This document shows, piece after piece, positions 31,795 to 59,788 of a stretch of 64,000 nt of DNA. The notes below the pieces were generated by a model that saw only the letters and a list, made by a program, of their open reading frames with translations, did no database searches and had not been told where the DNA came from. How positions within the stretch are numbered: the first letter of the stretch is position 1; the number at the start of each line of letters is the position of its first letter. A program made the translations under genes and the position numbers. Source of the stretch: an uncultured Candidatus Saccharibacteria bacterium (GTDB lineage Bacteria > Patescibacteriota > Minisyncoccia > Phycocordibacterales > UBA5272); NCBI GenBank assembly GCA_964369115.1, contig CAYJED010000004.1, positions 16,428-80,427 on the forward strand. The letters are read 5' to 3'.

Positions 31795-31945
31795 TGCTAA
31801 TCGATACTTCGGAAGAAACCCCGAGACGGAACCGTAGTTGTCGTTGGCATTGTCGACATCGTTGGTGTCGAACTTGACCTTGTCGTCATTGAACTTGAAG
31901 TACGGAGACTTCGAGAAATCGGAATCGGCATTCGGAGCTTTTACT
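31795..31945 (-). pseudogene. degenerate fragment homologous to the C-terminus of 32306..33202
   Basis: The minus strand encodes APNADSDFSKSPYFKFNDDKVKFDTNDVDNANDNYG, compared with APGADSGFSESPYFELIGVEVRFDTHVVGYAFDVYG in the intact gene. Nucleotide identity is about 80%. A stop lies immediately upstream and there is no start. Confidence 0.45.
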
Positions 31946-32305: not shown

Positions 32306-33202
32306 TCAACCTTGCGGAAGACACACCGAAGCCGAGCCATAGACGTCGAAGGCATAGCCGACAACGTGGGTGTCGAACCTGACCTCGACGCCAATGAGCT
32401 CGAAGTACGGAGACTCCGAGAAACCGGAATCGGCACCCGGAGCAAACTCGTCACCCGCACAGTCAATCCAGAGATCGTCATAGTGCTGGAGACGCTCAGG
32501 GTGAGTCAGGAGCATAATGCCGATGGCAAATGCACCCAAACCGCATTCATTTGCGTTCATTACTTCACGGGCACGGCGAACCGAGCGACCGCGATGACGG
32601 ATACCAAATTGTGCAGGTACCACCAGGATGTCCTGATCCTTTTGCTCGTCACCGAGCTTCTGGAAAATGGACACGGACTTGGCGGATTGACGGAGCTGAT
32701 TTGAACCAAGCTGACCTTCACGGTAGTTGTAGAACGCACCGTTTCTGGTTTGCTTGATCAAGTCGAACACTTTTTGCACGGCTTCACCATAAGTGGAGCC
32801 CACCTTTTCCCATCGTGGAATGGCGAACCATCCTTCGGCGTTTTCAGGTAGCGTAGCTTCGGCAAGCTTTTCATTGGCATAGCCGATACCAGGGAACAGT
32901 TCACGGAGTCGGTTGGTCTGCTCGGTGATACCCTTGGGCTTTTTGTAGCTCGACAGGTAACCGAACGTCGACTTCACTTCCTCGCCCTTGTACTTGTCGG
33001 AGACCGACAAGTCTTTGAGCGTCGCCAGGGCGACCTCGCCGATGTTGCCGACGAGTTCGTCGCCGTGTTCGATGACACGCTGTGCACCGTCCTTGTCGAG
33101 ACCGAGTTCGGTCACGATCTTTTCGACAGCATCAGCGATGAGGCGGTTGATCTGCTTGATTTGACCTGCGGTTGCAGGAATGACTTGAGTAATCCCGTTC
33201 AT
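32306..33202 (-). CDS. hypothetical protein (GC-rich, likely acquired)
   Basis: 298-aa ORF at about 55% GC; the antisense frames are open, as expected for GC-rich DNA. Confidence 0.45.
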   Translation of the reverse strand: MNGITQVIPATAGQIKQINRLIADAVEKIVTELGLDKDGAQRVIEHGDELVGNIGEVALATLKDLSVSDKYKGEEVKSTFGYLSSYKKPKGITEQTNRLRELFPGIGYANEKLAEATLPENAEGWFAIPRWEKVGSTYGEAVQKVFDLIKQTRNGAFYNYREGQLGSNQLRQSAKSVSIFQKLGDEQKDQDILVVPAQFGIRHRGRSVRRAREVMNANECGLGAFAIGIMLLTHPERLQHYDDLWIDCAGDEFAPGADSGFSESPYFELIGVEVRFDTHVVGYAFDVYGSASVCLPQG

Positions 33203-33728
33203 GGGTTATCTCTCCTTGTAAATGTTCAAACTCGGTTTACATTGCCGAAACAATTTGCCACAGATTGTGACTCCTACAATAATAGCATGAAAGTAGTAAA
33301 AAGTCAAGGTAAAAAACATAGTAAAAACAGCGTTTTTTAGACGCTGTTTTTACTTTCTAGCACCCTTCTCGTGCTAGCTGTTGAAGGTGAGCCAGTACTA
33401 TCTAGGGTGGAACACCATTGAAAACGAGATAATAAAATGGAAAACAGTTTTCAATAAGTACCCGAACCGACTTTTAGCACTAACTAATTATGAATAATAT
33501 CTATATTTTACAATCTTTTCATAGAAAAACCATCAAAAAGATTTTCTAATTTATATACCGTATCTGGTATAGAACTATGCATTAGTGAGTAAAATCAAGC
33601 AAAAACCTAACCTTGACATTATTGTTTACCAATGCTATAATATAACAACTGAACTAACCCTAAATGAAAGAGGGAAAGTTAGTCGGTGTATGTTACGAAA
33701 ACATACATGCTCATTACAGGAGAAAGAC

Positions 33729-34058
33729 ATGAGCCATTTCGATGAGAAGGACAACTTGTTCGGGCCTGCTCGCGCCTCCATGCGTGCACGTCTCGGCGAG
33801 TTCATGGATGTCTACATGGATGCCAAAATCAAGATCGCCCAGAAGCTGGCCGACAAGATCGCCGGCGAAAATGATGTCGAACAACTGATGGCACTCCGCG
33901 CCAAGTTGAACGATGTCATGTTCGCTGAAGATGACATCACCCAGCTGGATACGAAGATCAAGGCGCTGTTGGCGATGTTGCAGACGAACGCAACTGCCTT
34001 CATCACTCTTCGACAGCAGTGGAAGTCGTCCATCGAGGACACTCACGGCCGTCATTGA
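33729..34058 (+). CDS. hypothetical protein, high-GC gene within the AT-rich element
   Basis: An ATG at 33729 follows AGGAGAAAG. 109 aa, acidic and helical, about 55% GC. Confidence 0.45.
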   Translation: MSHFDEKDNLFGPARASMRARLGEFMDVYMDAKIKIAQKLADKIAGENDVEQLMALRAKLNDVMFAEDDITQLDTKIKALLAMLQTNATAFITLRQQWKSSIEDTHGRH

Positions 34059-34476
34059 GCCCTGTCCAGCTTCAAAAAAAGCCCTACTTCGGTAGGGCTT
34101 TTTTCTATACTAAATTTATCTGTTATAACAGAGAAATAACAGATAATTAGCGTAACTATTCCGACTATCTTTTTTGTTGTTATAACAACCAAAAAACAAC
34201 TATTTTTAGTAAAACTTTTTATCTCATTCTGATTGTTATAACAATCAAATAACAATTACGGAGCTGTTTACCAATTGTGATATAATACACACATAAACCT
34301 AACCCTTTCTATCACTAAAAAGGTATGGTTTTCAAAATCACGCTAAATGATAAAGATCTCCCAATGAGCTCTCACATTTAGCGTGTCGTATCTGGAAACG
34401 GATACGGGCCGGGTAACTGGCCAGAGGTTCGTTGGGAGTTTTTTGCTTTTATAAATAAAAATCACGCTAAATAATT

Positions 34477-34992
34477 ATGAGTACAAATACAAAAAAGATT
34501 TGCAAATACTGTAAATCTGAAATCATTTTGTCTGCTAAAAAATGTCCACAATGTCAGTCGGACCTTCGTAACTGGTTTGTAAGACACTGGATTATTTCAA
34601 TACTTATCGGACTTGTTGTTCTTGGAATAATAGGATCAGGATCAAACAAAAATACAACGACTGATAGTTCAAAAATACCGCAAGGATCAACTGAAAAACA
34701 ATCAGGTAAACAATATGTAGAGGTGGTGAGGTTTAGTGGAAAGGGTCAGAAAAGTTCAGAACCTTTCAAGATCAGTGGAAGTAGGTTCAAAGTTACTTAC
34801 GATTGTAAGGGTGACACCGCGACTACATATTGTGGAGCTTTTGCGTATAAAGTCGGTAGCAATATACCTCAAGGTGTTATGAATGCCACACAAGCAGTAA
34901 AGGATGAAACTGTTATATATGGATCTGGTGAATATTACATAACAGCTAACACAATGGGTGATTTTTCTATGGTTATTTACGACTATAAGTAA
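34477..34992 (+). CDS. zinc-ribbon membrane protein
   Basis: N-terminal CKYC..CPQC zinc ribbon, a TM helix, then an extracellular beta-rich domain. Confidence 0.45.
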   Translation: MSTNTKKICKYCKSEIILSAKKCPQCQSDLRNWFVRHWIISILIGLVVLGIIGSGSNKNTTTDSSKIPQGSTEKQSGKQYVEVVRFSGKGQKSSEPFKISGSRFKVTYDCKGDTATTYCGAFAYKVGSNIPQGVMNATQAVKDETVIYGSGEYYITANTMGDFSMVIYDYK

Positions 34993-35044
34993 CAAAAACA
35001 ATAACTCATTATCGTGGTAAAATACATATAAGTTATAGAACTTT

Positions 35045-35734
35045 ATGGACGGTAATGAGGACTTCAACAAGAGCACATATTGGGTACTTTCTGAACTCAA
35101 AGAAGAGAGTTTTGTGCTTTCGGATAACGATCAAGAAATAGAATTTTGTTTTGATGGTAGAAAAAGCTCACCAGATAAAAAAGTTCAAGATAGGGTGCTT
35201 CGTTTTCTCGAGAAAGAAAAAGCTGTTTCCCTTACAGCGTTTTATATAAAACCAAAGCCACTAAAAAACCTAACTAGAAATTTTGATACCTATGGGTATG
35301 GACCAATTGGATATGATGTAAAACTACTACAGCCGAGATTTGATGAACTGTACAATGAATATTCTGCTTTCAAGTCAAACAAAAATAATAAAGAGCAGTA
35401 TCAGTTCAATCTCACTATCTATCACGACAGAGGAACATTTTTTGTTGATGAGAAGAGAAAAATAGAATTCAGAAATCTTATAAGACCACTTATTATTGAG
35501 ATACTGTATAAAGCAAAAGGTAAAGATGTTGCTTCGGATAAAATAAAAACAGGGCTACAGAAAAAACTACTGAAAGATGGGCACGTTGATAATATCACAA
35601 GTATCATTGACGATATGCGCAAGAGTATAAAAAAGCACCTAAAGATAGATCCTAAAATAGTTCTACCTGATGGTGTTTCTGGTCCTGGTTACAGAATTGG
35701 AGATATCGAAATCAATATTGTAAGAGAAAAATAG
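35045..35734 (+). CDS. hypothetical protein
   Basis: 229-aa ORF; no family recognised. Confidence 0.4.
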   Translation: MDGNEDFNKSTYWVLSELKEESFVLSDNDQEIEFCFDGRKSSPDKKVQDRVLRFLEKEKAVSLTAFYIKPKPLKNLTRNFDTYGYGPIGYDVKLLQPRFDELYNEYSAFKSNKNNKEQYQFNLTIYHDRGTFFVDEKRKIEFRNLIRPLIIEILYKAKGKDVASDKIKTGLQKKLLKDGHVDNITSIIDDMRKSIKKHLKIDPKIVLPDGVSGPGYRIGDIEINIVREK

Positions 35735-35858
35735 ATAAGACCTTGTAGGTATGGTGTGAATTATCATACTGAACAGCTTACTTTGTAACGGTTTCTGAAT
35801 TCCTATAAGGTCGTAATGGGTATGTAATAGGCCCATACATATTTCCTACAATGTTTTT

Positions 35859-36011
35859 ATGACGCTCGAAGAGTTCATAAAAACAATAGGCAAAGAAGCG
35901 GATGGACTATCTCAAGAAGAGATTGAGTTTTACTATACCGTAACAGTAAAAACCTTCGATATATTTTTTGATAGATACAAGAAAGAAAAAATGTTGGTAG
36001 CACACGGATAA
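35859..36011 (+). CDS. small hypothetical protein upstream of recombinase (possible directionality or regulatory factor)
   Basis: 50-aa ORF MTLEEFIKTIGKEADGLSQEEIEFYYTVTVKTFDIFFDRYKKEKMLVAHG. It ends 31 nt before the recombinase. Confidence 0.25.
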   Translation: MTLEEFIKTIGKEADGLSQEEIEFYYTVTVKTFDIFFDRYKKEKMLVAHG

Positions 36012-36042
36012 TTCATCATAAAAATGATAAAATATAACTATA

Positions 36043-37830
36043 ATGGACCAACCAATTTATGTCATAGGGTATGCTAGAGTGAGTACCCCAAAACAAGCTC
36101 AAACTGGTGAGAGTTTGGAGGCACAAGAAAAAGCAATAAGAAAATATTGTGAAAAGAAAGGATATGCCCTCTTTCCTGATAACAAAGTTTTCAAAGAGCC
36201 ATATTCTGGGAGTAATCTTTTCAGGCCAGCATACAGAGAAATACTAGGAATTATAAAGAACAATATACATTCAAAAACAAAGGTAAAATATTTAGTATTT
36301 TGGGACTTTGATCGTCTCACGAGAGGAGGTTCGGCTGATTATGATCAGATATGGAAAGATGTTTCTGAATATGGCGTTGAATTGAGAGATACAACAGAAA
36401 TAATTCAAGAGGAAGTAAATATTATAAAGGAAGAGTTTGGTCTTGATATTGAATATGGTTGGAGCACAGCCAGACCAAGTGAAGAAGCTGAAAAAACAAA
36501 AGCAGAAGACGCAAGGAAACATAAGCGAAAAATATTGCAGACAATGATAACGGCGGAGATCCGTCTAACGATAGATGGCTATCACATAGGAAGACCTGAT
36601 TATGGTTTTCAAAACAAAAAGATTTTTGTGGGCACAAAGAAAAAATGTATCCAGGAAAGATTTGAACCCGAAGCGGTATTTGTTGAAAGAATATACAAAC
36701 TTCGTGCTGAAGGGGTGCTTTCTGATCAAGAAATTTGTAACGATGTGAATACTTTAGGATATAAAAGTAGAACTTTCAATAAATGGAACAAAGACAAGAC
36801 AAAAGTGTTGAGTGTTTCCGGGGGCAATAAACTGACCATAAAGCAGTTACAAGATATGATCAAGCGTTTTACTTACTGTGGTGTTATCTGTGAACGGTGG
36901 ACCAAATATCAGCCGATAAAAGCAAAGTATGAAGGTCTTGTGACTGTTGATCAGTGGAATACAGCAAACAGAGGTAAGGTTCAATTGGAAATAGGAGACG
37001 ACGATTATTTCACTTTGCTAAAAGATGTAAATATTCATAGTAAGAAGCGTAAAAAATATAACCCTAACTTTCCTTTCAAAGGTGTTTTGATGTGTGAAGT
37101 ATGTGGTAAGGTGATGAAGGCAAGCGCTTCAACTGGTAAAAGTGGGAAACCTTTTCCGGCTTATCATTGTGGTAGAGGTCACAAAAATAACGGTATCCCT
37201 AAAAAAGAACTTGAAGATGCTTTCAATAATTACTTGGAAAAGATAAAATTCACTGATAAGTTCTTGAATATTTTTGAAAAGACAGTTTATCTACAATTCA
37301 GAAAGAGAGAAGGAGAGCTTGCTGATTATACAAGCAAGGCAAATATCAATGTTGGAGAATTAGAAGCGCAGAAATCTGCACTTATAAAGTCATTCCCAGC
37401 AGCAACTCACCCAGAGGTTAGAAAAGGAATAGAAGATGAGATAACTAAACTGCAAGACGAGATTGCTAAAGCAAGATCACAAAGAGATAAAATGGAGATC
37501 GAAGAAGCTGACGTTGAGAATTTTATTGCTTGGTGTAAGGAAACAATGGAACACCCAACAAAAATCCTTACAGATATTAGGTCCGAGCAAGAATTAGCGA
37601 ACACTTTTTTACTTTTCTTTGAGAAGTTTCCTACCTATACAGAATTAGTTAGTGGAACACCTAAACTATCTTTAGTTTTCAAGCTTTCAGAAGAATTCAA
37701 GGTCAATCAAGACCTGTTGGTGAGCCAGTACTATCTAGGGTGGAACACCATTGAAAACGAGATAATAAAATGGAAAACAGTTTTCAATAAGTACCCGAAC
37801 CGACTTTTAGCACTAACTAATTATGAATAA
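36043..37830 (+). CDS. large serine recombinase (attP-form C-terminus)
   Basis: N-terminal resolvase domain (IGYARVSTPKQAQTGESLEAQ), a recombinase domain, a zinc ribbon (CEVCGKV...HCGRGH) and a coiled coil. The last 37 codons are encoded by the left end of copy 2. Confidence 0.85.
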   Translation: MDQPIYVIGYARVSTPKQAQTGESLEAQEKAIRKYCEKKGYALFPDNKVFKEPYSGSNLFRPAYREILGIIKNNIHSKTKVKYLVFWDFDRLTRGGSADYDQIWKDVSEYGVELRDTTEIIQEEVNIIKEEFGLDIEYGWSTARPSEEAEKTKAEDARKHKRKILQTMITAEIRLTIDGYHIGRPDYGFQNKKIFVGTKKKCIQERFEPEAVFVERIYKLRAEGVLSDQEICNDVNTLGYKSRTFNKWNKDKTKVLSVSGGNKLTIKQLQDMIKRFTYCGVICERWTKYQPIKAKYEGLVTVDQWNTANRGKVQLEIGDDDYFTLLKDVNIHSKKRKKYNPNFPFKGVLMCEVCGKVMKASASTGKSGKPFPAYHCGRGHKNNGIPKKELEDAFNNYLEKIKFTDKFLNIFEKTVYLQFRKREGELADYTSKANINVGELEAQKSALIKSFPAATHPEVRKGIEDEITKLQDEIAKARSQRDKMEIEEADVENFIAWCKETMEHPTKILTDIRSEQELANTFLLFFEKFPTYTELVSGTPKLSLVFKLSEEFKVNQDLLVSQYYLGWNTIENEIIKWKTVFNKYPNRLLALTNYE

Positions 37831-38061
37831 TATCTATATTTTACAATCTTTTCATAGAAAAACCATCAAAAAGATTTTCTAATTTATATACCGTATCTGG
37901 TATAGAACTATGCATTAGTGAGTAAAATCAAGCAAAAACCTAACCTTGACATTATTGTTTACCAATGCTATAATATAACAACTGAACTAACCCTAAATGA
38001 AAGAGGGAAAGTTAGTCGGTGTATGTTACGAAAACATACATGCTCATTACAGGAGAAAGAC

Positions 38062-38391
38062 ATGAGCCATTTCGATGAGAAGGACAACTTGTTCGGGCCT
38101 GCTCGCGCCTCCATGCGTGCACGTCTCGGCGAGTTCATGGATGTCTACATGGATGCCAAAATCAAGATCGCCCAGAAGCTGGCCGACAAGATCGCCGGCG
38201 AAAATGATGTCGAACAACTGATGGCACTCCGCGCCAAGTTGAACGATGTCATGTTCGCTGAAGATGACATCACCCAGCTGGATACGAAGATCAAGGCGCT
38301 GTTGGCGATGTTGCAGACGAACGCAACTGCCTTCATCACTCTTCGACAGCAGTGGAAGTCGTCCATCGAGGACACTCACGGCCGTCATTGA
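38062..38391 (+). CDS. hypothetical protein (identical copy of 33729..34058)
   Basis: Exact duplicate. Confidence 0.45.
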   Translation: MSHFDEKDNLFGPARASMRARLGEFMDVYMDAKIKIAQKLADKIAGENDVEQLMALRAKLNDVMFAEDDITQLDTKIKALLAMLQTNATAFITLRQQWKSSIEDTHGRH

Positions 38392-38809
38392 GCCCTGTCC
38401 AGCTTCAAAAAAAGCCCTACTTCGGTAGGGCTTTTTTCTATACTAAATTTATCTGTTATAACAGAGAAATAACAGATAATTAGCGTAACTATTCCGACTA
38501 TCTTTTTTGTTGTTATAACAACCAAAAAACAACTATTTTTAGTAAAACTTTTTATCTCATTCTGATTGTTATAACAATCAAATAACAATTACGGAGCTGT
38601 TTACCAATTGTGATATAATACACACATAAACCTAACCCTTTCTATCACTAAAAAGGTATGGTTTTCAAAATCACGCTAAATGATAAAGATCTCCCAATGA
38701 GCTCTCACATTTAGCGTGTCGTATCTGGAAACGGATACGGGCCGGGTAACTGGCCAGAGGTTCGTTGGGAGTTTTTTGCTTTTATAAATAAAAATCACGC
38801 TAAATAATT

Positions 38810-39325
38810 ATGAGTACAAATACAAAAAAGATTTGCAAATACTGTAAATCTGAAATCATTTTGTCTGCTAAAAAATGTCCACAATGTCAGTCGGACCTTC
38901 GTAACTGGTTTGTAAGACACTGGATTATTTCAATACTTATCGGACTTGTTGTTCTTGGAATAATAGGATCAGGATCAAACAAAAATACAACGACTGATAG
39001 TTCAAAAATACCGCAAGGATCAACTGAAAAACAATCAGGTAAACAATATGTAGAGGTGGTGAGGTTTAGTGGAAAGGGTCAGAAAAGTTCAGAACCTTTC
39101 AAGATCAGTGGAAGTAGGTTCAAAGTTACTTACGATTGTAAGGGTGACACCGCGACTACATATTGTGGAGCTTTTGCGTATAAAGTCGGTAGCAATATAC
39201 CTCAAGGTGTTATGAATGCCACACAAGCAGTAAAGGATGAAACTGTTATATATGGATCTGGTGAATATTACATAACAGCTAACACAATGGGTGATTTTTC
39301 TATGGTTATTTACGACTATAAGTAA
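38810..39325 (+). CDS. zinc-ribbon membrane protein (identical copy)
   Basis: Exact duplicate of 34477..34992. Confidence 0.45.
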   Translation: MSTNTKKICKYCKSEIILSAKKCPQCQSDLRNWFVRHWIISILIGLVVLGIIGSGSNKNTTTDSSKIPQGSTEKQSGKQYVEVVRFSGKGQKSSEPFKISGSRFKVTYDCKGDTATTYCGAFAYKVGSNIPQGVMNATQAVKDETVIYGSGEYYITANTMGDFSMVIYDYK

Positions 39326-39377
39326 CAAAAACAATAACTCATTATCGTGGTAAAATACATATAAGTTATAGAACTTT

Positions 39378-40067
39378 ATGGACGGTAATGAGGACTTCAA
39401 CAAGAGCACATATTGGGTACTTTCTGAACTCAAAGAAGAGAGTTTTGTGCTTTCGGATAACGATCAAGAAATAGAATTTTGTTTTGATGGTAGAAAAAGC
39501 TCACCAGATAAAAAAGTTCAAGATAGGGTGCTTCGTTTTCTCGAGAAAGAAAAAGCTGTTTCCCTTACAGCGTTTTATATAAAACCAAAGCCACTAAAAA
39601 ACCTAACTAGAAATTTTGATACCTATGGGTATGGACCAATTGGATATGATGTAAAACTACTACAGCCGAGATTTGATGAACTGTACAATGAATATTCTGC
39701 TTTCAAGTCAAACAAAAATAATAAAGAGCAGTATCAGTTCAATCTCACTATCTATCACGACAGAGGAACATTTTTTGTTGATGAGAAGAGAAAAATAGAA
39801 TTCAGAAATCTTATAAGACCACTTATTATTGAGATACTGTATAAAGCAAAAGGTAAAGATGTTGCTTCGGATAAAATAAAAACAGGGCTACAGAAAAAAC
39901 TACTGAAAGATGGGCACGTTGATAATATCACAAGTATCATTGACGATATGCGCAAGAGTATAAAAAAGCACCTAAAGATAGATCCTAAAATAGTTCTACC
40001 TGATGGTGTTTCTGGTCCTGGTTACAGAATTGGAGATATCGAAATCAATATTGTAAGAGAAAAATAG
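39378..40067 (+). CDS. hypothetical protein (identical copy)
   Basis: Exact duplicate of 35045..35734. Confidence 0.4.
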   Translation: MDGNEDFNKSTYWVLSELKEESFVLSDNDQEIEFCFDGRKSSPDKKVQDRVLRFLEKEKAVSLTAFYIKPKPLKNLTRNFDTYGYGPIGYDVKLLQPRFDELYNEYSAFKSNKNNKEQYQFNLTIYHDRGTFFVDEKRKIEFRNLIRPLIIEILYKAKGKDVASDKIKTGLQKKLLKDGHVDNITSIIDDMRKSIKKHLKIDPKIVLPDGVSGPGYRIGDIEINIVREK

Positions 40068-40375
40068 ATAAGACCTTGTAGGTATGGTGTGAATTATCAT
40101 ACTGAACAGCTTACTTTGTAACGGTTTCTGAATTCCTATAAGGTCGTAATGGGTATGTAATAGGCCCATACATATTTCCTACAATGTTTTTATGACGCTC
40201 GAAGAGTTCATAAAAACAATAGGCAAAGAAGCGGATGGACTATCTCAAGAAGAGATTGAGTTTTACTATACCGTAACAGTAAAAACCTTCGATATATTTT
40301 TTGATAGATACAAGAAAGAAAAAATGTTGGTAGCACACGGATAATTCATCATAAAAATGATAAAATATAACTATA

Positions 40376-42091
40376 ATGGACCAACCAATTTATGTCATAG
40401 GGTATGCTAGAGTGAGTACCCCAAAACAAGCTCAAACTGGTGAGAGTTTGGAGGCACAAGAAAAAGCAATAAGAAAATATTGTGAAAAGAAAGGATATGC
40501 CCTCTTTCCTGATAACAAAGTTTTCAAAGAGCCATATTCTGGGAGTAATCTTTTCAGGCCAGCATACAGAGAAATACTAGGAATTATAAAGAACAATATA
40601 CATTCAAAAACAAAGGTAAAATATTTAGTATTTTGGGACTTTGATCGTCTCACGAGAGGAGGTTCGGCTGATTATGATCAGATATGGAAAGATGTTTCTG
40701 AATATGGCGTTGAATTGAGAGATACAACAGAAATAATTCAAGAGGAAGTAAATATTATAAAGGAAGAGTTTGGTCTTGATATTGAATATGGTTGGAGCAC
40801 AGCCAGACCAAGTGAAGAAGCTGAAAAAACAAAAGCAGAAGACGCAAGGAAACATAAGCGAAAAATATTGCAGACAATGATAACGGCGGAGATCCGTCTA
40901 ACGATAGATGGCTATCACATAGGAAGACCTGATTATGGTTTTCAAAACAAAAAGATTTTTGTGGGCACAAAGAAAAAATGTATCCAGGAAAGATTTGAAC
41001 CCGAAGCGGTATTTGTTGAAAGAATATACAAACTTCGTGCTGAAGGGGTGCTTTCTGATCAAGAAATTTGTAACGATGTGAATACTTTAGGATATAAAAG
41101 TAGAACTTTCAATAAATGGAACAAAGACAAGACAAAAGTGTTGAGTGTTTCCGGGGGCAATAAACTGACCATAAAGCAGTTACAAGATATGATCAAGCGT
41201 TTTACTTACTGTGGTGTTATCTGTGAACGGTGGACCAAATATCAGCCGATAAAAGCAAAGTATGAAGGTCTTGTGACTGTTGATCAGTGGAATACAGCAA
41301 ACAGAGGTAAGGTTCAATTGGAAATAGGAGACGACGATTATTTCACTTTGCTAAAAGATGTAAATATTCATAGTAAGAAGCGTAAAAAATATAACCCTAA
41401 CTTTCCTTTCAAAGGTGTTTTGATGTGTGAAGTATGTGGTAAGGTGATGAAGGCAAGCGCTTCAACTGGTAAAAGTGGGAAACCTTTTCCGGCTTATCAT
41501 TGTGGTAGAGGTCACAAAAATAACGGTATCCCTAAAAAAGAACTTGAAGATGCTTTCAATAATTACTTGGAAAAGATAAAATTCACTGATAAGTTCTTGA
41601 ATATTTTTGAAAAGACAGTTTATCTACAATTCAGAAAGAGAGAAGGAGAGCTTGCTGATTATACAAGCAAGGCAAATATCAATGTTGGAGAATTAGAAGC
41701 GCAGAAATCTGCACTTATAAAGTCATTCCCAGCAGCAACTCACCCAGAGGTTAGAAAAGGAATAGAAGATGAGATAACTAAACTGCAAGACGAGATTGCT
41801 AAAGCAAGATCACAAAGAGATAAAATGGAGATCGAAGAAGCTGACGTTGAGAATTTTATTGCTTGGTGTAAGGAAACAATGGAACACCCAACAAAAATCC
41901 TTACAGATATTAGGTCCGAGCAAGAATTAGCGAACACTTTTTTACTTTTCTTTGAGAAGTTTCCTACCTATACAGAATTAGTTAGTGGAACACCTAAACT
42001 ATCTTTAGTTTTCAAGCTTTCAGAAGAATTCAAGGTCAATCAAGACCTGTTGGTGACCCTACGGAGAGTCGAACTCCGCTTCCAGGCATGA
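40376..42091 (+). CDS. large serine recombinase (integrated-form C-terminus, reads into tRNA-Glu antisense)
   Basis: Identical to 36043..37830 for 560 aa, then diverges at the GGTGA core into ...TLRRVELRFQA encoded by the complement of the tRNA-Glu 3' half. Confidence 0.8.
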   Translation: MDQPIYVIGYARVSTPKQAQTGESLEAQEKAIRKYCEKKGYALFPDNKVFKEPYSGSNLFRPAYREILGIIKNNIHSKTKVKYLVFWDFDRLTRGGSADYDQIWKDVSEYGVELRDTTEIIQEEVNIIKEEFGLDIEYGWSTARPSEEAEKTKAEDARKHKRKILQTMITAEIRLTIDGYHIGRPDYGFQNKKIFVGTKKKCIQERFEPEAVFVERIYKLRAEGVLSDQEICNDVNTLGYKSRTFNKWNKDKTKVLSVSGGNKLTIKQLQDMIKRFTYCGVICERWTKYQPIKAKYEGLVTVDQWNTANRGKVQLEIGDDDYFTLLKDVNIHSKKRKKYNPNFPFKGVLMCEVCGKVMKASASTGKSGKPFPAYHCGRGHKNNGIPKKELEDAFNNYLEKIKFTDKFLNIFEKTVYLQFRKREGELADYTSKANINVGELEAQKSALIKSFPAATHPEVRKGIEDEITKLQDEIAKARSQRDKMEIEEADVENFIAWCKETMEHPTKILTDIRSEQELANTFLLFFEKFPTYTELVSGTPKLSLVFKLSEEFKVNQDLLVTLRRVELRFQA

Positions 42092-42125
42092 GAAGCCTGT
42101 GTCCTAGCCGATAGACGATAGGGCC
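42051..42125 (-). tRNA. tRNA-Glu (anticodon CUC), CCA encoded
   Basis: The reverse complement folds as a cloverleaf: acceptor GGCCCTA/TAGGGTC, anticodon stem CAGGC/GCCTG with loop UUCUCAU, T-arm CGGAG-TTCGACT-CTCCG, 3' ACCA. Confidence 0.7.
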
Positions 42126-43934: not shown

Positions 43935-45065
43935 ATGGAGCAAAAAGAAAAATTCTCCCTTAAAGATCATCTTTTTAATGAAGCAAAAGTACAAAAGATC
44001 ACTAAAGAAATAGCTCAAGTACATTCTTCATTTAAAAAGTCTGCTTTTGTAAAAGAAACAGTACAAGCTTTTCCAAATCTCGGATTAAAAGAGCGTATAT
44101 TTCATATACGAGAAATGCTTAAGAAGTATTTACCGGAAGATTATAAAGATGCGATAAAAGTTCTTCTTTCGTCACTACCAGAGGAACTCGATCCAACAAA
44201 AGAAGATGATGATTTTGGGGATTTTATTTATGCACCATATGGGGACTTTGTGGCAACATATGGGAAAGATGCAAAAAATCTTAAAATCTCATTACAAGCG
44301 CTTCACGAGATTACACGACGTTTTTCTTGTGAAGATGCAATTCGTTCTTTTATAAATAATCATCAAGAAGAAACATTAAAGACATTAGAGAAGTGGACGA
44401 AAGACAAGAACTACCATGTGCGAAGACTTGTAAGCGAAGGAACACGTCCTAAGCTTCCTTGGTCGCGTAAGATAGGTATGTCTATAGAAAAAGCAATACC
44501 GCTTCTTGATGAGCTTTTTTATGACACAACTCGCTATGTAACACGCAGTGTTGCAAATCATATGAATGATATTGCAAAGCTTGATCCAAAGCTTGTACTT
44601 ACCACCCTTAAGCGATGGAAAGCTTCTAAGAAACAAAGTGACAGTGAAATGAACTTTATCATTAAGCATTCACTTCGCACCCTTGTAAAAGAGGGGAATG
44701 TCGAAGCGTTTTCTCTCCTTGGGTTTACACAGAGTGCTACTATTACACTTAAGAATTGTACAGCTTTAGAAAAAGCGAAGGTGGGAGATGTTCTTACATT
44801 TTCTTTTATGCTAGAGAGTGACAGAGATACAGAAGCAATGATCGACTATGTGATGCTATTTCAAAATAAAAGTGGAAAACAAGATAGTAAAAAAGTGTTT
44901 AAACTAAAAAAGCTCACTCTTACAAAAGGGGAGAAGGTGGAAGTGGCGAAACGCCATCCGTTACGAGCGGAGATGACAACTCGAACACTTTATAAAGGTA
45001 AACACACTGTCATTATTCAAGTGAATAGTAAAAAGCTTCACGAATTTAGTTTTGATTTAGTATAG
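43935..45065 (+). CDS. DNA alkylation repair (AlkD-like HEAT-repeat) family protein
   Basis: 376 aa, all-helical, with a YHVRRLVSEGTRPKLPW-type motif. A weak call. Confidence 0.35.
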   Translation: MEQKEKFSLKDHLFNEAKVQKITKEIAQVHSSFKKSAFVKETVQAFPNLGLKERIFHIREMLKKYLPEDYKDAIKVLLSSLPEELDPTKEDDDFGDFIYAPYGDFVATYGKDAKNLKISLQALHEITRRFSCEDAIRSFINNHQEETLKTLEKWTKDKNYHVRRLVSEGTRPKLPWSRKIGMSIEKAIPLLDELFYDTTRYVTRSVANHMNDIAKLDPKLVLTTLKRWKASKKQSDSEMNFIIKHSLRTLVKEGNVEAFSLLGFTQSATITLKNCTALEKAKVGDVLTFSFMLESDRDTEAMIDYVMLFQNKSGKQDSKKVFKLKKLTLTKGEKVEVAKRHPLRAEMTTRTLYKGKHTVIIQVNSKKLHEFSFDLV

Positions 45066-45252
45066 TAAAGGTTTAGTTGTAGATCTTTTACTCCCCGCAT
45101 ATACAAAAATTCCGAGAAAGAATCTCGGAATTTTTGTATATGCGGTGTATGTGAGTTAAGTACCCACAGGTCTAGACCCTGTAAAGGTATTTTAGCATCC
45201 TTTTCTTACTCTAAAATATGTATGTGGGTCACTATTGTTTTTAGATAAAATA

Positions 45253-45924
45253 CTACATTCCAACAATCTGTATGACTAACATCGCTATCTTTTTCTTATC
45301 TTCATCTGACAAAGAAACCCTAGAACCTTCTAACCTAAAATTAAAATAATCATCACTAATAAGATAGGCACCGATAAACTCAGTCATATCTTCCAAGGTA
45401 TTCATACTAAGTAAACCAGTATCTCTATTTTGCCTGTGGTAAACATCCATACCCGCGAGACCGTTGCAAATACCTTTAATGTTAAGAAATGCATACAGCT
45501 CTATATATGGATGAAACTTTTCATCAATATCATTTGATCCATTTAAGAAATTAATGAGGGCTTGCTCGTATCCAGCTTGATTTTGAAAAACATGAGCAGA
45601 TTCATGAGCTAATTTAACAAGAAGTTGCTCTTTAGCGCTATCAACACCCCAACCGAAACTGTCTACATTCTCTCTACGAAATGGCATGGCACCGAGAGCG
45701 ATCTGAGACATTCCATTTTCAAGTCTTTTTGTACTTGATTCAGCACTTGCTTCATTAATACTAAGTTCTCCGTTTACCACAGAAAGAATTTTACCAACTC
45801 TTAATGAATTTCTACTTTCTACATTGAGTAATACTTGATCCATAATCGGGGAAAGTCCAGAGAATAATCTTCTTGGTGCAGATTCTTGTATTGGATTATT
45901 GCTTTTTGATTCCGGTGTTTTCAT
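45253..45924 (-). CDS. HExxH-motif hypothetical protein (putative metallopeptidase-like)
   Basis: LAHESAHVF motif. Flanked by about 70-bp imperfect direct repeats. Confidence 0.4.
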   Translation of the reverse strand: MKTPESKSNNPIQESAPRRLFSGLSPIMDQVLLNVESRNSLRVGKILSVVNGELSINEASAESSTKRLENGMSQIALGAMPFRRENVDSFGWGVDSAKEQLLVKLAHESAHVFQNQAGYEQALINFLNGSNDIDEKFHPYIELYAFLNIKGICNGLAGMDVYHRQNRDTGLLSMNTLEDMTEFIGAYLISDDYFNFRLEGSRVSLSDEDKKKIAMLVIQIVGM

Positions 45925-46074
45925 AAATTATGTATCTGGGTCACTCCGATACTTTTTTATTTTTGCGGTGTATGTGAGTTAAGTACCCACGGTCTTAAGT
46001 GTTATAAGGCTATTTTAGCACTTTTTCTCTATGGATGCTAAGGCAAGTGAGTCGGGTATTCCAAATGCCAACAA

Positions 46075-46830
46075 ATGCCAATTTTTGGTATAATACAAGG
46101 TATGACAGTCGGCGAATTAGTAGCACAAATAGCATCTCAGAACTCCTCTCCCACATCAAAGGATATGGCTTCATCTATTGAGAAAGTCAGAGAAATCTAT
46201 GAGAAGAATTTCGGACCCGAAGCTCCTTTTAGGAAAGCTTTAGAAAAGAATATGGAAATGGTAAATTCTGCCGTTGAATCTGTAAGACCTCAACTTGAGA
46301 CAATGGAAAGACTTCGGTCTTCAATTCCGCACATAACACTTCCAAGGATGATAGAAGAAGATGATTATTTGCTTCCCGAAATGATAAACCCAATTCGTGA
46401 AGTGAGAGTAACTAATATTCACGAACTAACTGGTTACAAATCTAACAGGCAAAGCGATGTTGTAGTCGCTGAATATCTACTCCCTAAAAATGCCACATGG
46501 GGAAGTTTGGATATTAAATTTTTAGATGGACATATTGTTCAAGTTTCTTACCCAAGAATGAAATCAATGAAATTTGATTACAAAGATATGGGATTTTTGA
46601 ATATAAAAAGAAATATACCAAATTTAAAATGGGAACTGTTTAGAGCAATCGCAGAAAATGGAGGTGCACTGACAAAAGATAATTTTGATAGAAGGTTTGG
46701 TAGAAATGTTAAATATGAACTCAATAAAGCTCTCAAAAAGTTTTTTGGTATGAATACTGATCCAATAACCCATTACACTAAATGGCATGGATACCGTACC
46801 AAATTCTCTCTCAGAGGTGAACGATATTAG
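46075..46830 (+). CDS. hypothetical protein
   Basis: 251-aa ORF; no family recognised. Confidence 0.35.
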   Translation: MPIFGIIQGMTVGELVAQIASQNSSPTSKDMASSIEKVREIYEKNFGPEAPFRKALEKNMEMVNSAVESVRPQLETMERLRSSIPHITLPRMIEEDDYLLPEMINPIREVRVTNIHELTGYKSNRQSDVVVAEYLLPKNATWGSLDIKFLDGHIVQVSYPRMKSMKFDYKDMGFLNIKRNIPNLKWELFRAIAENGGALTKDNFDRRFGRNVKYELNKALKKFFGMNTDPITHYTKWHGYRTKFSLRGERY

Positions 46831-46964
46831 AATTGTCATTTTATTTGGAATGACGCTTAAAAGACTTTTTACTATATAGGTAAAAAGTCTTTTATTTTAT
46901 AGATAATCTCATCAGTCAGTCATAGAAAGTAAAAAGAAATTGTCATTTTGTCATTCAATGACGA

Positions 46965-48305
46965 ATGTTAGTAGAAGAGTTTAATAAGATCCTCTTCTCT
47001 AAAAACCCTATGGCAAAAGAAAAGATCATATGGTCTGCAGTTGCTCGCAAACTGCAAGACCTGATCAAAAACGGATACAATCCGCGCAAGTTAAGCGAGA
47101 ACGAACGAAGAGACTTGGAAAGGTCAATAAAGGAATTCGGAACAGTTGTTCCAGTGATCCTCAATACTGGCTCCCGAACCAATATTATTATTGGTGGCGA
47201 ACAACGAGTCAAAGTATATGCCGATCTCGGCATAGCAGAGATTGAGTGCATGATACCCTCCCGAGAGCTAACGCTTGAGGAAGAGCGAGAACTCAATCTT
47301 CGTCTCAACAAGAACACGGGTTCGTGGAATGAAGAACTTCTCAAAGAGTTTGATATGAGCCTGCTTCTTGATATCGGTTTTGGAGATGAAGAATTACAAA
47401 ACCTATTTGATGATGTTGACCTTGTCGAGGATGACTTTAACCTTGAAAAAGCACTCAAGGAAACAATTAAGCCGAAAGTAAAATCAGGAGAAATTTGGGA
47501 GCTTGGGAAACATCGCCTACTTGTCGGCGATTCTACGGATCAGGAACTCGTGCAGAAGCTCATGAACGGAGACTTGGCGGACATTGTGTACTGCGACCCG
47601 CCATACAACATCGGCTTGGACTATTCCAAAGGAGTTGGAAACAAGGAAAAATACCAGGGTTCGTATTCAGGCAAGGACGACTCCAAGAAAGACAGCGACT
47701 ACATGGATTTCTTGGACAAGAGCATGGAAGTGGCAAAAAGTATCAGCAAGAAAAATGCCCACTTCTTCTATTGGTGCGATTCCTCATATCTTTGGATGGT
47801 TCAAACCTTGTATGCAAAACACAAGGTAGATTCCAAGCGTGTCTGCATGTGGATCAAGAACAACCAGAACCCTACTCACAAGATTGCCTTTAATAAAGTG
47901 TACGAGCCGTGTGTATACGGAACGCTCGGCAAGCCATATCTCAATACAGGAATGAATAACACCAACGAGATCCTTAACCAAGAAGTAACCACTGGCAATC
48001 AAGTACACGATGAAATCCTAGACATGATAGATATCTGGATTGAGAAAAGGGACAACGCTCAGTCGTACCAGCACCCTACGCAAAAACCCGTCACCTTAAA
48101 CGAGAAACCATTTAAGCGTTGCAGTTCTCCACTGCATATCATCTACAGCGGATTTGCAGGAAGCGGTAGTGACCTAATTGCCGCCGAAGAACTACATCGC
48201 GTATGGCGTGGCGTTGAGAAAGATCTCATCTTCGCAACCATTGTCATTGACCGATGGGAGAAATTTACCAACCTTAAGGCAAAGAAAATCTATGAAAATA
48301 AATAA
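46965..48305 (+). CDS. ParB-like nuclease domain fused to DNA methyltransferase (DPPY, N6-adenine/N4-cytosine class)
   Basis: N-terminal ParB-like region (...GYNPRKLSENERRDLERSIKEFG..), then the DPPY motif IV (IVYCDPPYN) and, C-terminal to it, an FAGSGS AdoMet-binding motif with HPTQKP. Confidence 0.75.
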   Translation: MLVEEFNKILFSKNPMAKEKIIWSAVARKLQDLIKNGYNPRKLSENERRDLERSIKEFGTVVPVILNTGSRTNIIIGGEQRVKVYADLGIAEIECMIPSRELTLEEERELNLRLNKNTGSWNEELLKEFDMSLLLDIGFGDEELQNLFDDVDLVEDDFNLEKALKETIKPKVKSGEIWELGKHRLLVGDSTDQELVQKLMNGDLADIVYCDPPYNIGLDYSKGVGNKEKYQGSYSGKDDSKKDSDYMDFLDKSMEVAKSISKKNAHFFYWCDSSYLWMVQTLYAKHKVDSKRVCMWIKNNQNPTHKIAFNKVYEPCVYGTLGKPYLNTGMNNTNEILNQEVTTGNQVHDEILDMIDIWIEKRDNAQSYQHPTQKPVTLNEKPFKRCSSPLHIIYSGFAGSGSDLIAAEELHRVWRGVEKDLIFATIVIDRWEKFTNLKAKKIYENK

Positions 48306-49041
48306 AAGAGACACATTCAAAGTTGGCGATCACATCATTGCTTGCGGTGATTCGCTGGACAAGGCATTTGTCGGCAAGGTCATAGGAAGCAATAAGATAC
48401 GAGCGGTCGTCACTGATCCTCCATACGGCGTTGCGTATGTTGAGAATAAGAAAGGCTTTCTGAAACTTAGCTCTGATGAAGATAAAGCTATAACCAACGA
48501 TCATATCCAAACCGAAGAAGAGTATGGGGAGTTTACCCGCAAATACTTGGGAGCGGTTATTCCATATCTTGAAGAATACAATGCGGTCTACATTTTCAAT
48601 GCCGATCCGATGTTCCCGAGCCTACGCTCTGGCATGAAGTCCGCTGGTTTCTACTACAGCCAAATGATAATTTGGCTCAAGAACCAGCCCGTCATGAGCC
48701 GAAAGGATTACTTGTCGATGTATGAACTCATTGCATACGGTTGGTTCGGTAAGCATCGAATGGAACGGTCTAAAGCGAGAAATGTTATCTACCACCCCCG
48801 ACCGACCAAATCCAGACTTCACCCGACACAAAAACCGATCGGACTGCTCAGAAAAATCATCCCTAACTCAACAAAGGTCGGTGACATTGTTTACGATCCA
48901 TTCCTTGGAAGTGGCTCAACCGCTATTGCCTGTGAACACTTAGGTCGAAAGTGTGTCGGTATCGAGCTTGATGAAGCATATGTAGAAACTACGCTCAAAA
49001 GACTCGAAAAGCTCACTGGCGAAACAGCGATAAAGCTCTAA
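48292..49041 (+). CDS. DNA methyltransferase (DPPY class), second subunit or paralog
   Basis: VVTDPPYG, HPTQKP and DPFLGSGST motifs. Overlaps the upstream methyltransferase by 14 nt. Confidence 0.75.
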   Translation: MKINKRDTFKVGDHIIACGDSLDKAFVGKVIGSNKIRAVVTDPPYGVAYVENKKGFLKLSSDEDKAITNDHIQTEEEYGEFTRKYLGAVIPYLEEYNAVYIFNADPMFPSLRSGMKSAGFYYSQMIIWLKNQPVMSRKDYLSMYELIAYGWFGKHRMERSKARNVIYHPRPTKSRLHPTQKPIGLLRKIIPNSTKVGDIVYDPFLGSGSTAIACEHLGRKCVGIELDEAYVETTLKRLEKLTGETAIKL

Positions 49042-49045
49042 TGAA

Positions 49046-49420
49046 ATGATGGAAGAAGACTTTTCAAAAGATCCATACAAGAAGCAAGTCTACGAGACTT
49101 ACGCTCTTTGGAAGTCTTTTCCTTCGTTTCTCAAGGGACAGCCAAGAGTAGCGCTTGAGAAATTTGGTATTGAGGAGGAATCAGCGTTTGAACTGCTTGC
49201 CATAAAGACTCAGGCTGAATTCTCGAAAACATACAAGGTCGATACCGGCACGCTCACGGATTGGAATAAGAGACTTGAGAAAGATGGACTAGTCAAAGAC
49301 ATCAACTCTTGGGCAAGAAAGCTGACTCCGAATGTTATCTTTGCGCTCTATAAGAACATCATCAAAAGCGGCAAAGCTCATGAAGTGAGAGCTTGGTTTG
49401 AGATTATAGAAAACAACTAG
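49046..49420 (+). CDS. hypothetical protein
   Basis: 124 aa, starting 4 nt after the methyltransferase stop. Possibly HTH-like. Confidence 0.35.
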   Translation: MMEEDFSKDPYKKQVYETYALWKSFPSFLKGQPRVALEKFGIEEESAFELLAIKTQAEFSKTYKVDTGTLTDWNKRLEKDGLVKDINSWARKLTPNVIFALYKNIIKSGKAHEVRAWFEIIENN

Positions 49421-49421
49421 T

Positions 49422-49622
49422 ATGAAAAAGATTAACTTAGAAGAAATAAATAGTATTCTCTCGGACACCATTCACAAGGTGTTGAATAAGGAAATACCAC
49501 TCAAGCAGGCATCGGTGATTGCTCGTCTTACAGCAACGCTTTCAAAGAACATTGCGAACACTGATCTTAAAGATCGGGTTGAATTCTTGGAAAGCATACT
49601 AAGAAAAAATAAAGACTCATGA
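49422..49622 (+). CDS. hypothetical small protein
   Basis: 66 aa, translationally coupled (ATGA overlap with the next gene). Confidence 0.3.
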   Translation: MKKINLEEINSILSDTIHKVLNKEIPLKQASVIARLTATLSKNIANTDLKDRVEFLESILRKNKDS

Positions 49623-51109: not shown

Positions 51110-51219
51110 ATTTTTTATTTTCCTTTACCACCTTTCTGAACAGGCTGACCTTGGCTTGGTGTTGGTCGTGGCGCTGGCTGGGGTTTTGGCGCTGGTTTAG
51201 AGTTATTATTTGCCATATA

Positions 51220-51669
51220 TTAGATAAAAATCATTAGCAATATACCGACTAGGAATAATGTAAGTGCTTGTTTGTAATCCTTGTTCTTGCCTTCCAAAGC
51301 TTTTGAATTATCATCAAACGCTTTTTGATAATCTGAGAGTAATTGATCTAAAAGGGTTTCAGTTTTCATTGAACGATAATCTTTTGGATCATTATAAAAA
51401 TCCACTACGCCCGTATTATATGTTTTAACTTTCAATGTTTGCCAAAGGAAATATCCAGAAAAGAGCAGAATCATTATCGGTATTACTTGAAGAGCATGGA
51501 TATGATGAAAACTTTGTATGTAGAAAATGAGAATAGCTCCCTCTAGTGGAATCATTACTCCTGCTTTTGCATCAAGTCCGTTATCGGCATTGAGTAAATA
51601 ATCAACCTTGCTTCTTGTTGCATTTACAAGTATTTCTAGTGATTTGGTTTTGTCTTCATGCTCGGTCAT
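51220..51669 (-). CDS. small membrane protein co-transcribed downstream of Type III res
   Basis: 149 aa with two central TM helices and one C-terminal TM helix. Its start overlaps the res stop by 4 nt. Confidence 0.4.
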   Translation of the reverse strand: MTEHEDKTKSLEILVNATRSKVDYLLNADNGLDAKAGVMIPLEGAILIFYIQSFHHIHALQVIPIMILLFSGYFLWQTLKVKTYNTGVVDFYNDPKDYRSMKTETLLDQLLSDYQKAFDDNSKALEGKNKDYKQALTLFLVGILLMIFI

Positions 51670-53960: not shown

Positions 53961-53963
53961 AGA

Positions 53964-55700: not shown

Positions 55701-56004
55701 AGGGGTACAGTTCTATGTCTCGGCTATCCATATTTGGTTTGTATAGAAACGGCAAAGAGGGACAGCCGAGCCTGTACCCCATAATGGTGCTACCCCGAAA
55801 GGTTCCTGTTATGGAACTCGGACTGCCCCTCTTTGCCTATAACAGGTAAGAGAAAACAGTCCTTTCGGGGACGAAGCACTAAATATATAAACACTATGGG
55901 GTACAAATGAACTCTAACATAAAAACACCTCTAAATAAAGGCTTATTTAGAGGTGTTTACCAACAGTCTGGACTTTGCGAGTGCTTCGCGTCATTTAATA
56001 GTAT

Positions 56005-56328: not shown

Positions 56329-56419
56329 AAAATTGAGCGGACTCGCTTCGCGAGTAAATGCCAAAGGGTCAAAGAACCCAAGAGTCAAAGAATCAGAAAA
56401 ATACAAAGAGACAACAGGT

Positions 56420-58686: not shown

Positions 58687-58710
58687 TATTTTCTTTTCCG
58701 CGACCTCATG

Positions 58711-59697: not shown

Positions 59698-59788
59698 AAA
59701 ATTGAGCGGACTCGCTTCGCGAGTAAATGCCAAAGGGTCAAAGAACCCAAGAGTCAAAGAATCAGAAAAATACAAAGAGACAACAGGT

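Follow-up and report, generated by a model that had tools for sequence, protein, structure and literature searches.

A stretch of 64,000 nucleotides from an uncultured Candidatus Saccharibacteria bacterium (contig CAYJED010000004.1; hereafter the window) very probably carries a 4.3-kb integrative element of a Patescibacteria (candidate phyla radiation, CPR) host, moved by a large serine recombinase (LSR) into the 3' end of tRNA-Glu(CUC). The attachment site of the element, attP, is located within the open reading frame (ORF) of the recombinase. Judged from the loci compared here, this arrangement is the rule across about 80 small elements (4-9 kb) found mostly in tRNA-Glu, and the splitting of the LSR gene by integration is conserved and evolutionarily reversible.

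The element is present as two 4333-bp units arranged head-to-tail, 33386-37718 and 37719-42051, both on the plus strand and identical with 0 mismatches. The match between the units runs on for a further 5 bp (GGTGA, 42052-42056), giving 4338 bp at 100% identity. Three GGTGA cores bound the units: that of attL at 33386-33390, that of a reconstituted attP at 37719-37723, within recombinase codons 559-561, and that of attR at 42052-42056, the reverse complement of which corresponds to positions 71-75 of tRNA-Glu. The tRNA-Glu(CUC) gene (42051-42125, minus strand) was assigned by ARAGORN (CTC anticodon), by the Rfam tRNA model (49.7 bits) and by comparison with the empty sites. Read along the tRNA, the core is TCACC and comprises the final two bases of the acceptor stem, the discriminator A73 and C74-C75. 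GGTGA, 5 bp, is all that attP and attB share, and the tRNA therefore stays intact: its body is unaltered after insertion, and the only change lies 3' of C75, where the empty site has T and the occupied site has A. The element has a G+C content of 36.0%, against 40.0% for the window.

Contigs of related strains, retrieved via the exact sequence of neighbouring chromosomal proteins, include empty sites. The empty site, ...CGTGCTAGCTGTTGAA GGTGA CCCTACGGAGAG..., is found exactly in four independent contigs from JGI, Logan and NCBI metagenomes (L003, L004, L010 and L011; L numbers denote the loci compared here), and the left flank of unit 1 passes into this same sequence at attL. An identical 571-amino-acid (aa) recombinase is encoded on the NCBI contig JBPOHU010000004.1 (L001), labelled as a metagenome-assembled genome of a Candidatus Nomurabacteria bacterium. 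On this contig a single unit, preceded by 110 bp of left flank and followed by 126 bp of tRNA flank, lies between attL and an attR like that at the right junction of unit 2. The element occurs at 100% identity in Logan contigs of four more runs, of which one runs through attL, two through attR and one lies inside the unit; the sole match in a scan of genome contigs with a single recombinase protein was the 4.6-kb contig already found.

Two relatives extend this picture. L015 is a sister element, 93% identical, that occupies a different, non-tRNA site and is flanked by GTGAGC. The overlap between GGTGA and GTGAGC confines the crossover to GTGA, and the presence of so similar an element in another site indicates that the element moves. 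L101 is a relative in the same tRNA-Glu site of a related host, with other cargo (a Band_7 gene replacing the genes p109 and p171 and the LOOT RNA, all described below). On this comparison, L015 and L101 show mobility and cargo exchange.

attB, attL and attR are thus each documented independently of the window, and attP is seen solely at the middle junction of the window. Some negative results weigh against the reading of this DNA as an active integrative element: a look-up in the assembly index gave no exact match to the 595-aa protein of the attP form, a scan of IMG/VR viral contigs did not find the attP junction, and no directionality factor or replication gene was identified by homology in the element. 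No replication, capsid or transfer gene is recognisable in it either. An earlier note on this DNA had described two identical 4333-bp units bounded by three GGTGA cores, had placed the third core inside the acceptor end of the minus-strand tRNA-Glu(CUC), and had quoted three junction sequences as an attL / attP-like / attR series. The identity of the units, the ARAGORN and Rfam assignments, the junctions as they stand in the sequence, and the empty sites and single-copy junctions elsewhere bear it out on each of these counts. The search it proposed for empty tRNA-Glu sites and single-copy insertions in other genomes yielded both, the empty site in four contigs.

The attP form of the recombinase, 595 aa long (36043-37830, plus strand), takes residues 1-560 from unit 1, and its linker and W-N...W helix from the left end of unit 2. 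The integrated (attR) form has 571 aa (40376-42091, plus strand), the last 11 of which are translated from the antisense strand of tRNA-Glu. The two proteins are identical through residue 560 and then diverge into tails of 35 aa (SQYYLGWNTIENEIIKWKTVF...) and 11 aa (TLRRVELRFQA), respectively. By its predicted domains and fold, the 595-aa ORF is a large serine recombinase. It contains the Pfam domains Resolvase (E 2.4e-16), Recombinase and Zn_ribbon_recom, all above their gathering scores, and matches PHROG 95 'integrase' (E 3e-44); Pfam gives no Phage_integrase (tyrosine recombinase) domain in this ORF. The earlier note had called the ORF an LSR, and the hidden Markov model (HMM) search that it suggested found all the resolvase, recombinase and zinc-ribbon domains expected. 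Its further claim, that integration rewrites the C-terminus of the recombinase (571 in place of 595 aa), also stood, and the change is seen family-wide.

An AlphaFold2 model of the 595-aa protein, built from an alignment of 70 relatives, has a mean predicted local distance difference test (pLDDT) score of 86.9. Its parts are the catalytic and recombinase domains, a long helix E, a zinc ribbon bearing a two-helix coiled coil (405-484, with long helices at 405-450 and 457-484) and a further, well-predicted helical domain (488-559). In Foldseek the model matches the full-length LSR-DNA cryo-EM chains 9y66, 9dxd and 9iu2 (Bxb1) with E-values of 2e-15 to 7e-11, and also the catalytic domain of TP901-1 (3bvp). 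The catalytic motif reads YARVS14T; R12, S14 and D90 are nearly invariant and R91 and R94 invariant among 46-70 relatives. Invariance among relatives extends to C351, C354, H375 and C376, the zinc ligands. Identity to any LSR in isolated-phage or plasmid collections does not exceed 26%, over part of the length. The attP site at codon 560 coincides with the end of the confidently folded part of the model, and in this model the integrated form keeps every folded domain.

A database search returned 82 homologues, whose 82 loci were fetched; those with a named source come mostly from Patescibacteria groups. The majority have a length of about 569 aa and cease to resemble the query at residue ~560, the crossover. 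Their C-termini (…VTLRGIEPRF, …VTPRRVELRL, …GDEGIEPALAVLETAVLPLN) are translated tRNA antisense strands, and a minus-strand tRNA contains the stop codon of the LSR in 46 of the 82 loci (Glu 34, His 6, Lys 2, Arg 2, Trp 1, Val 1). No tRNA is present at the end of the LSR in about 18 sequences, that of the window included; these carry a longer tail that aligns with the 35-residue tail of the window. In the tails a V marks the crossover and is separated by six variable residues from an invariant W-N; the pattern continues as I/L, E, x, T/E, I, x, x, W, x, x, V/I, F, and it contains the conserved amphipathic helix motif W-N-x-I-E-x-x-I-x-x-W-x-x-V-F.

The part of the gene that is left behind on integration can be found at the other end of the elements. 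In the window, attL is followed by an orphaned tail segment (33387-33497, plus strand; tail HMM E 7e-13) made up of the P' arm, the linker and W-N...W helix codons and the stop. With a tail profile, 12 integrated relatives were found to have such an orphan copy too, on the strand of the LSR and upstream of it, and since these copies mark the attL ends they give element sizes of 4.3-9.4 kb. A further relative, L020, assembles as a circle of 4975 bp with a full-length LSR. The split LSRs of the 46 tRNA loci, the long tails and the 12 orphan tails together make attP inside the integrase ORF a family trait, and the intactness of the orphan tails indicates that the elements continue to cycle through the attP state. 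A point against equating the full-length LSR with a free form is that some distant relatives with full tails belong to chromosomes or long contigs (P0075 to an Acanthopleuribacter contig of 10.7 Mb; L077 and L033 lie beside TraG-like genes), so that the full-length LSR is not always a free circle.

Other arrangements of the family were noted. In L044 (1-9818), 9.8 kb contain three recombinase genes that differ from one another and share one strand; full tails are present in two of these genes. An extra orphan tail remnant lies downstream of a full-length recombinase in L029 (6200-6274) and in L037 (10365-10442). Heterologous tandem arrays may be common in this recombinase family; they are not explained by canonical attP x attB recombination. 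Downstream of the integration site of another relative, L034, a group I intron (3542-3780; Rfam RF00028, 53 bits) lies beside a tRNA cluster.

The nucleotides that encode the start of the tail helix also appear to have a role as DNA. The codons of W567 and N568 form the hexamer TGGAAC in the P' arm (37741-37746, plus strand, with a second copy at 33408-33413), 21 nt after the G of the GTG codon. In all 18 of 18 attP forms W-N is written TGG AAC, AAT is never used, and the +21 spacing is fixed. In the B' arm the antisense strand of the tRNA T-arm supplies TCGAAC (42069-42074, plus strand) 16 nt after the G of GTG; this spacing is found in 33/33 tRNA-Glu attR sites, and the non-tRNA site of L015 has TAGAAC at +16. 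The corresponding 12-mers of the window element are GGGTGGAACACC (attP) and GAGTCGAACTCC (attB). The motif is therefore 5 bp closer to the crossover in attB than in attP. In a Listeria LSR, the motif of the zinc-ribbon domain likewise recurs in attB 5 bp nearer the centre than in attP, and this shift was proposed as a determinant of directionality (Rutherford et al., PMC3783163). By analogy, TGGAAC and TCGAAC are inferred to be candidate binding motifs of the zinc-ribbon domain, an assignment supported by the identity of the 5-bp shift with that of the published model. The P' arm would in this way imitate the tRNA T-arm, and the W-N codons would be under constraint at the DNA and the protein level alike. 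The P and P' arms were examined for inverted symmetry, and no convincing TxGAAC counterpart was found in the P arm.

The dimer, as read from the assembled contig, is slightly more likely than not to be real. It would arise by integration of a dimeric circle or by homologous (Campbell-type) entry of a second circle, and the order of an integrated dimer would be attL-unit-attP-unit-attR. LSRs are reported not to recombine attP with attL or attR (PMC3783163), from which it follows that a dimer would be stable, barring its loss by homologous recombination or its excision as a whole. It is, however, quite possible that the dimer is a product of assembly, in which an integrated copy together with a free circle (or a mixture of strains) caused the loop to be traversed once too often. 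An exact 4.3-kb tandem is unresolvable by short reads unless the assembler estimates the copy number of the loop from coverage. All the other datasets contain single-copy junctions or empty sites only, the L001 contig passes from attL to attR through a single unit, and the circular assembly of L020 fits the same explanation. On the other side, an integrated dimer is expected if a dimeric circle integrates, and the window contains a second near-exact tandem duplication (55811-62560, period 3369 bp), at a place where no circle is expected, so that true tandems may occur. This second tandem shows that such structures occur in the assembly, without settling their reality. No long tandem repeat was found in any relative locus, a result that is uninformative if these are short-read assemblies, as is assumed, in which exact tandems collapse. 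Under either reading the attP junction must have been present in the reads, which indicates that the element was recently active.

The conservation of the tail bears on whether it functions as a peptide. Conservation reaches about 60 bp from the crossover, and its 25-60 bp zone lies past the half-site of ~25 bp. Synonymous variation in the 18 long tails (E, GAA 7 and GAG 6; I, ATA 8 and ATT 6; F, TTT 6 and TTC 4) points to selection at the protein level. The tail has a helical i/i+3/i+4/i+7 pattern with an invariant second Trp, and it looks like the native end of the protein, as the C-terminus is shared by the distant relatives in conjugative contexts and on the 10.7-Mb contig. Integration would strip a tethered helix from the enzyme and leave all folded domains in place. 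By analogy it is suggested, tentatively, that the loss of the tail alters the activity or directionality of the LSR rather than abolishing it, which would make this LSR the serine-recombinase equivalent of IntP/IntX of myxophage Mx8. In Mx8, where attP lies in the integrase gene, the new 3' end shifts the specificity of the enzyme without inactivating it (PMC6070905).

A wider and more doubtful proposal is that the LSR is a built-in sensor of DNA state. The tail helix would be made only where attP is intact and would tune directionality or activity without a separate regulator, the W-N nucleotides would double as a zinc-ribbon motif that mimics the T-arm, and the clade would be one of natural tRNA-targeting LSRs. 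If true, this would represent a new directionality logic and provide highly conserved landing sites. Several observations count against a functional helix. AlphaFold2 predicts it (567-583) with low confidence (pLDDT 41-51), after a disordered linker (560-571); the tail is carried by a minority of the aligned sequences, and the model therefore says little on its contacts. The Asn codon AAC, present in 18/18 tails, is a constraint at the DNA level that could explain part of the protein conservation.

These same observations can be taken further, to the view that attP overlaps the 3' end of the recombinase gene only through genome compaction and that the tail is functionless, conserved through DNA constraints on the P' arm. 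The invariance of TGG AAC (18/18), with its fixed spacing and its position within the expected half-site, agrees with this, as do the low confidence of the tail in AlphaFold2 and the retention of all folded domains in the integrated form. Such an explanation is nonetheless unlikely, given that the conservation 25-60 bp out is of amino-acid type, with synonymous codon variation and an invariant second Trp, that the orphan tails at attL are intact in the 12 integrated relatives, and that Mx8 offers the precedent of a tyrosine recombinase whose specificity changes with its C-terminus (PMC6070905).

An element so small, without phage or conjugation genes, and with near-identical members in two sites (tRNA-Glu here, non-tRNA in L015), could also be a serine-recombinase transposon of the Tn4451/Tn5397 kind with loosely defined targets. 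This is improbable: 46 of the 82 relatives lie at tRNA 3' ends (34 of them tRNA-Glu) with constant geometry, and the L015 site, which has the core and TxGAAC at +16, looks like a pseudo-attB rather than the outcome of loose targeting. Duplication of the unit by replication slippage or microhomology of the host, independent of the recombinase, has a parallel in the microhomology-bounded tandem elsewhere in the window, and can be rejected as highly improbable, as the boundaries of the repeat equal the element ends defined by the empty sites and the att core to the base, and the full-length ORF conserved in the family is restored at the middle junction.

Besides the recombinase, both units contain ORFs of 109, 171, 229 and 50 aa, as the cargo list of the earlier note had it; that list omitted an RNA gene, LOOT (Rfam RF03000), which Rfam classes as a small RNA gene. 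LOOT spans 34296-34445 on the plus strand, made up of the Rfam match (34296-34422; 38629-38755 in copy 2) and a terminator-like extension (34423-34445), and scores 84.5 bits over model positions 1-121, against a gathering score of 46.4. It recurs in 13 relative loci as 14 instances with 56-93 bits (L014, L015, L027, L038, L047, L050, L056, L062, L075 with two, L084, L085, L087 and L091), inside the element wherever the left end could be mapped. The first covariance model used for these searches had only 14 base pairs, taken from RNAalifold, and all its hits passed a re-check with Rfam. LOOT is also found once in the variable island of a related strain (L005, 9525-9650).

Three further features are missed by the Rfam match. 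A -10-like box lies immediately upstream of LOOT. The 3' extension ends in a U-run and has a G-rich arm complementary to helix P3 in 14/14 instances (z -1.6 to -6.1), the pairing sequences varying between loci. In 7 of the 14 instances tested, an exact repeat of the 5' strand of helix P2 (8-15 nt, p ≤ 0.008) stands beside the start codon, ATG, of the ORF that follows. In the window, the strand at 34334-34348 recurs in the start region of p171 at 34458-34472 (15 nt, exact, p = 0.002), and RNA, extension and repeat together lie within 34296-34476 (copy 2, 38629-38809); L015 has the repeat with the same sequence as the window, and the repeat otherwise differs from locus to locus. This pairing was judged by an exact-repeat test, RNA duplex folding of long downstream stretches against LOOT being uninformative. 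The ORF downstream of LOOT starts with a hydrophobic, transmembrane- or signal-like segment in 12/14 instances, as assessed by eye. Together these features suggest that LOOT is a regulatory RNA able to pair with the translation start region of its neighbour. An orphan RNA is now placed on mobile elements, just upstream of genes for membrane proteins.

The neighbour in question, p171 (34477-34992, copy 2 38810-39325, plus strand), combines a zinc ribbon with a single transmembrane helix; it matches DZR and DUF930 weakly, and also PHROG 14275. Upstream of LOOT lies p109 (33729-34058, copy 2 38062-38391, plus strand), which has an atypical composition, with 73% G+C at third codon positions (GC3) against about 28% for the other genes of the element. 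It is preceded by a perfect sigma-70-type promoter (33613-33641, TTGACA-17-TATAAT) and followed by a terminator hairpin (34074-34104). p109 is the most divergent segment between the sister elements (80% nucleotide identity, compared with 93-99% elsewhere), and its differences from L015 fall at codon positions 1:2:3 in the ratio 15:8:46, a skew that marks it as a real coding gene. It has 24 homologues, the source-named one being from Candidatus Paceibacterota. Between its terminator and the next promoter are three TGTTATAACA palindromes (34121-34130, 34178-34187 and 34234-34243), 56-57 bp apart and each followed by an AA(A/T)AACA half-site, which look like putative operators or iterons.

The gene p229 (35045-35734, copy 2 39378-40067, plus strand) is a core gene of the sub-lineage, present only in the window, L015 and L101. 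It has 9 close homologues. Trans_reg_C is matched weakly by 3 of 9 members (best E 0.0018), a hint that the C-terminus of p229 may be an OmpR-type winged-helix DNA-binding domain. hhalign aligned only 8 residues of p229 with the C-terminal domain of PhoB, and its AlphaFold2 model is unusable (pLDDT 40). A profile search returned 67 remote relatives that share only the N-terminal ~115 residues; neither p229 nor the 10 remote relatives tested matched any Pfam family, and p229 gave no Rep family hit. That the element could be a tiny iteron plasmid remains only an idea, with the palindromes and p229, whose single match is the weak one to Trans_reg_C, as its ingredients. The last of the four ORFs, p50 (35859-36011, copy 2 40192-40344, plus strand), has no Pfam or PHROG match and belongs to a small helical family. 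By iterated HMM search, members of this family immediately precede the LSR in 55 of the 72 relatives with enough upstream sequence, and from this conserved position p50 is the best candidate for a recombination directionality factor or regulator.

The surroundings of the integration sites are themselves rich in variable DNA. The insertion site of L015 lies between a tyrosine recombinase gene and an unrelated 457-aa LSR (L015 4202-5035 and 10318-11691). TTTGACCCTTCTCG motifs are repeated on both sides of this site, the left arm resembling a hairpin downstream of the tRNA at the attB of the window; with the flanking recombinase genes, these repeats mark the L015 site as a hotspot for mobile elements. 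At the site in the window, the region that starts about 3 kb right of the tRNA (~45000-55700, compared with L003-L012) differs in gene set among related strains: SAVED, Peptidase_S24 and methylase genes are found in L003, L004 and L006, Eco57I-type methylase, HNH and HATPase genes in L005, and ParB-methylase, ResIII helicase and methylase genes in the window and L007-L009. As read from its gene content, this region is a hypervariable, defence-like island beside the integration site.

Further to the right is a diversity-generating retroelement (55811-63480) with a reverse transcriptase gene at 62377-63480 (plus strand). Its template repeats lie at 58551-58685 and 61920-62054, and its variable repeats, at 56433-56567 and 59802-59936, belong to a pair of identical minus-strand target genes of 613 aa; each of the 24 differences between template and variable repeats falls at a template adenine. 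The unit made up of target and template is the one that forms the second tandem of the window, with 2 mismatches between its copies and an imperfect microhomology of 10-12 bp (ATGGAA..CGGA) at the junctions. To the left of the element, a 129-nt direct repeat with 80% identity occupies 31810-31938 and 32315-32443, and one copy forms the 3' end of the 298-aa gene that directly adjoins attB on its left (32306-33202, minus strand). At 18 of its 26 mismatches the downstream copy has adenine where the gene copy has another base, and the repeat looks like a second, possibly older template/variable pair served by a remote reverse transcriptase. The 298-aa gene has a GC3 of 62% and paralogues near a bAvd gene in L003. 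Near the left end of the window, a perfect 113-nt tandem repeat (1390-1502 and 1504-1616) lies in the ORF 882-1619, with a third copy at 424-536 (67% identity).

Serine integrases are the main tools for the insertion of large DNA, and the control of their direction is an active structural question. A gene written across attP yields two isoforms, one for each state of the DNA, and offers a testable hypothesis for direction control that is independent of a factor. The clade is also evidence of small, active mobile elements in Patescibacteria, a group about whose mobilome little is known. A paper of 2014 stated that integrases of the serine family were not known to target tRNA genes (PMC4383910). 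A limited literature search found no report of an LSR with attP in its own ORF, nor of a tRNA-targeting LSR clade, and large LSR surveys may hold unremarked cases. Phage JC1 was considered as a precedent for the insertion of an LSR element into a tRNA gene and rejected, its 'tRNA gene' being carried by the phage.

Among known systems, the LSRs of Bxb1, phiC31, Listeria A118 (LI integrase) and SPbeta (SprA) have the same layout of catalytic, recombinase and zinc-ribbon domains with a coiled coil as the LSR of the window. They likewise have very short identity between attP and attB, and a motif that is 5 bp nearer the centre in attB. Unlike them, the LSR of the window has an extra helical domain (488-559) and attP in its own 3' coding region, targets the 3' end of a tRNA, belongs to a CPR host and serves elements of only 4-9 kb. 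In Tn4451/Tn4453 the recombinase TnpX is also an LSR, one whose expression reportedly varies with the state of the DNA, and the circular joint creates something that is absent from the integrated form. This is reportedly a promoter that forms at the circle junction; in the window element, by contrast, the joint completes a coding sequence. The integration-dependent immunity of mycobacteriophages similarly places attP in a coding region, where integration changes the C-terminus of a protein and its behaviour. The gene affected there is said to be the repressor, and the integrase a tyrosine recombinase.

The islands described as Islander or TIGER resemble the window element in that a functional tRNA is kept, and that empty and occupied alleles occur in the population. 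Islander islands, however, have a tyrosine integrase and a duplicated, displaced tRNA fragment, whereas here the recombinase is of the serine family and only 5 bp are repeated, at attL; these two differences place the element outside the Islander definition (PMC4383910). The archaeal integrases of the SSV ('suicidal') type likewise have the site inside the ORF, and their gene is split on integration (PMC7253208, PMC4383910). They are tyrosine recombinases split into two non-functional parts, whereas the large part of the window LSR stays a complete multi-domain enzyme. The replaced segment of the Mx8 integrase is reportedly longer, about 110 residues, and its target is said to be a tRNA gene. 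Mx8 IntP shares with the window element the location of attP in the integrase coding sequence, the formation of a new 3' end on integration and the altered C-terminus that results (PMC6070905, PMC4383910). Mx8 IntP is a tyrosine recombinase, and the window element swaps only a linker and one helix. The layout described here is thus like that of Mx8 IntP and of the SSV type, but the element is not a member of either group, its enzyme being a serine and not a tyrosine recombinase.

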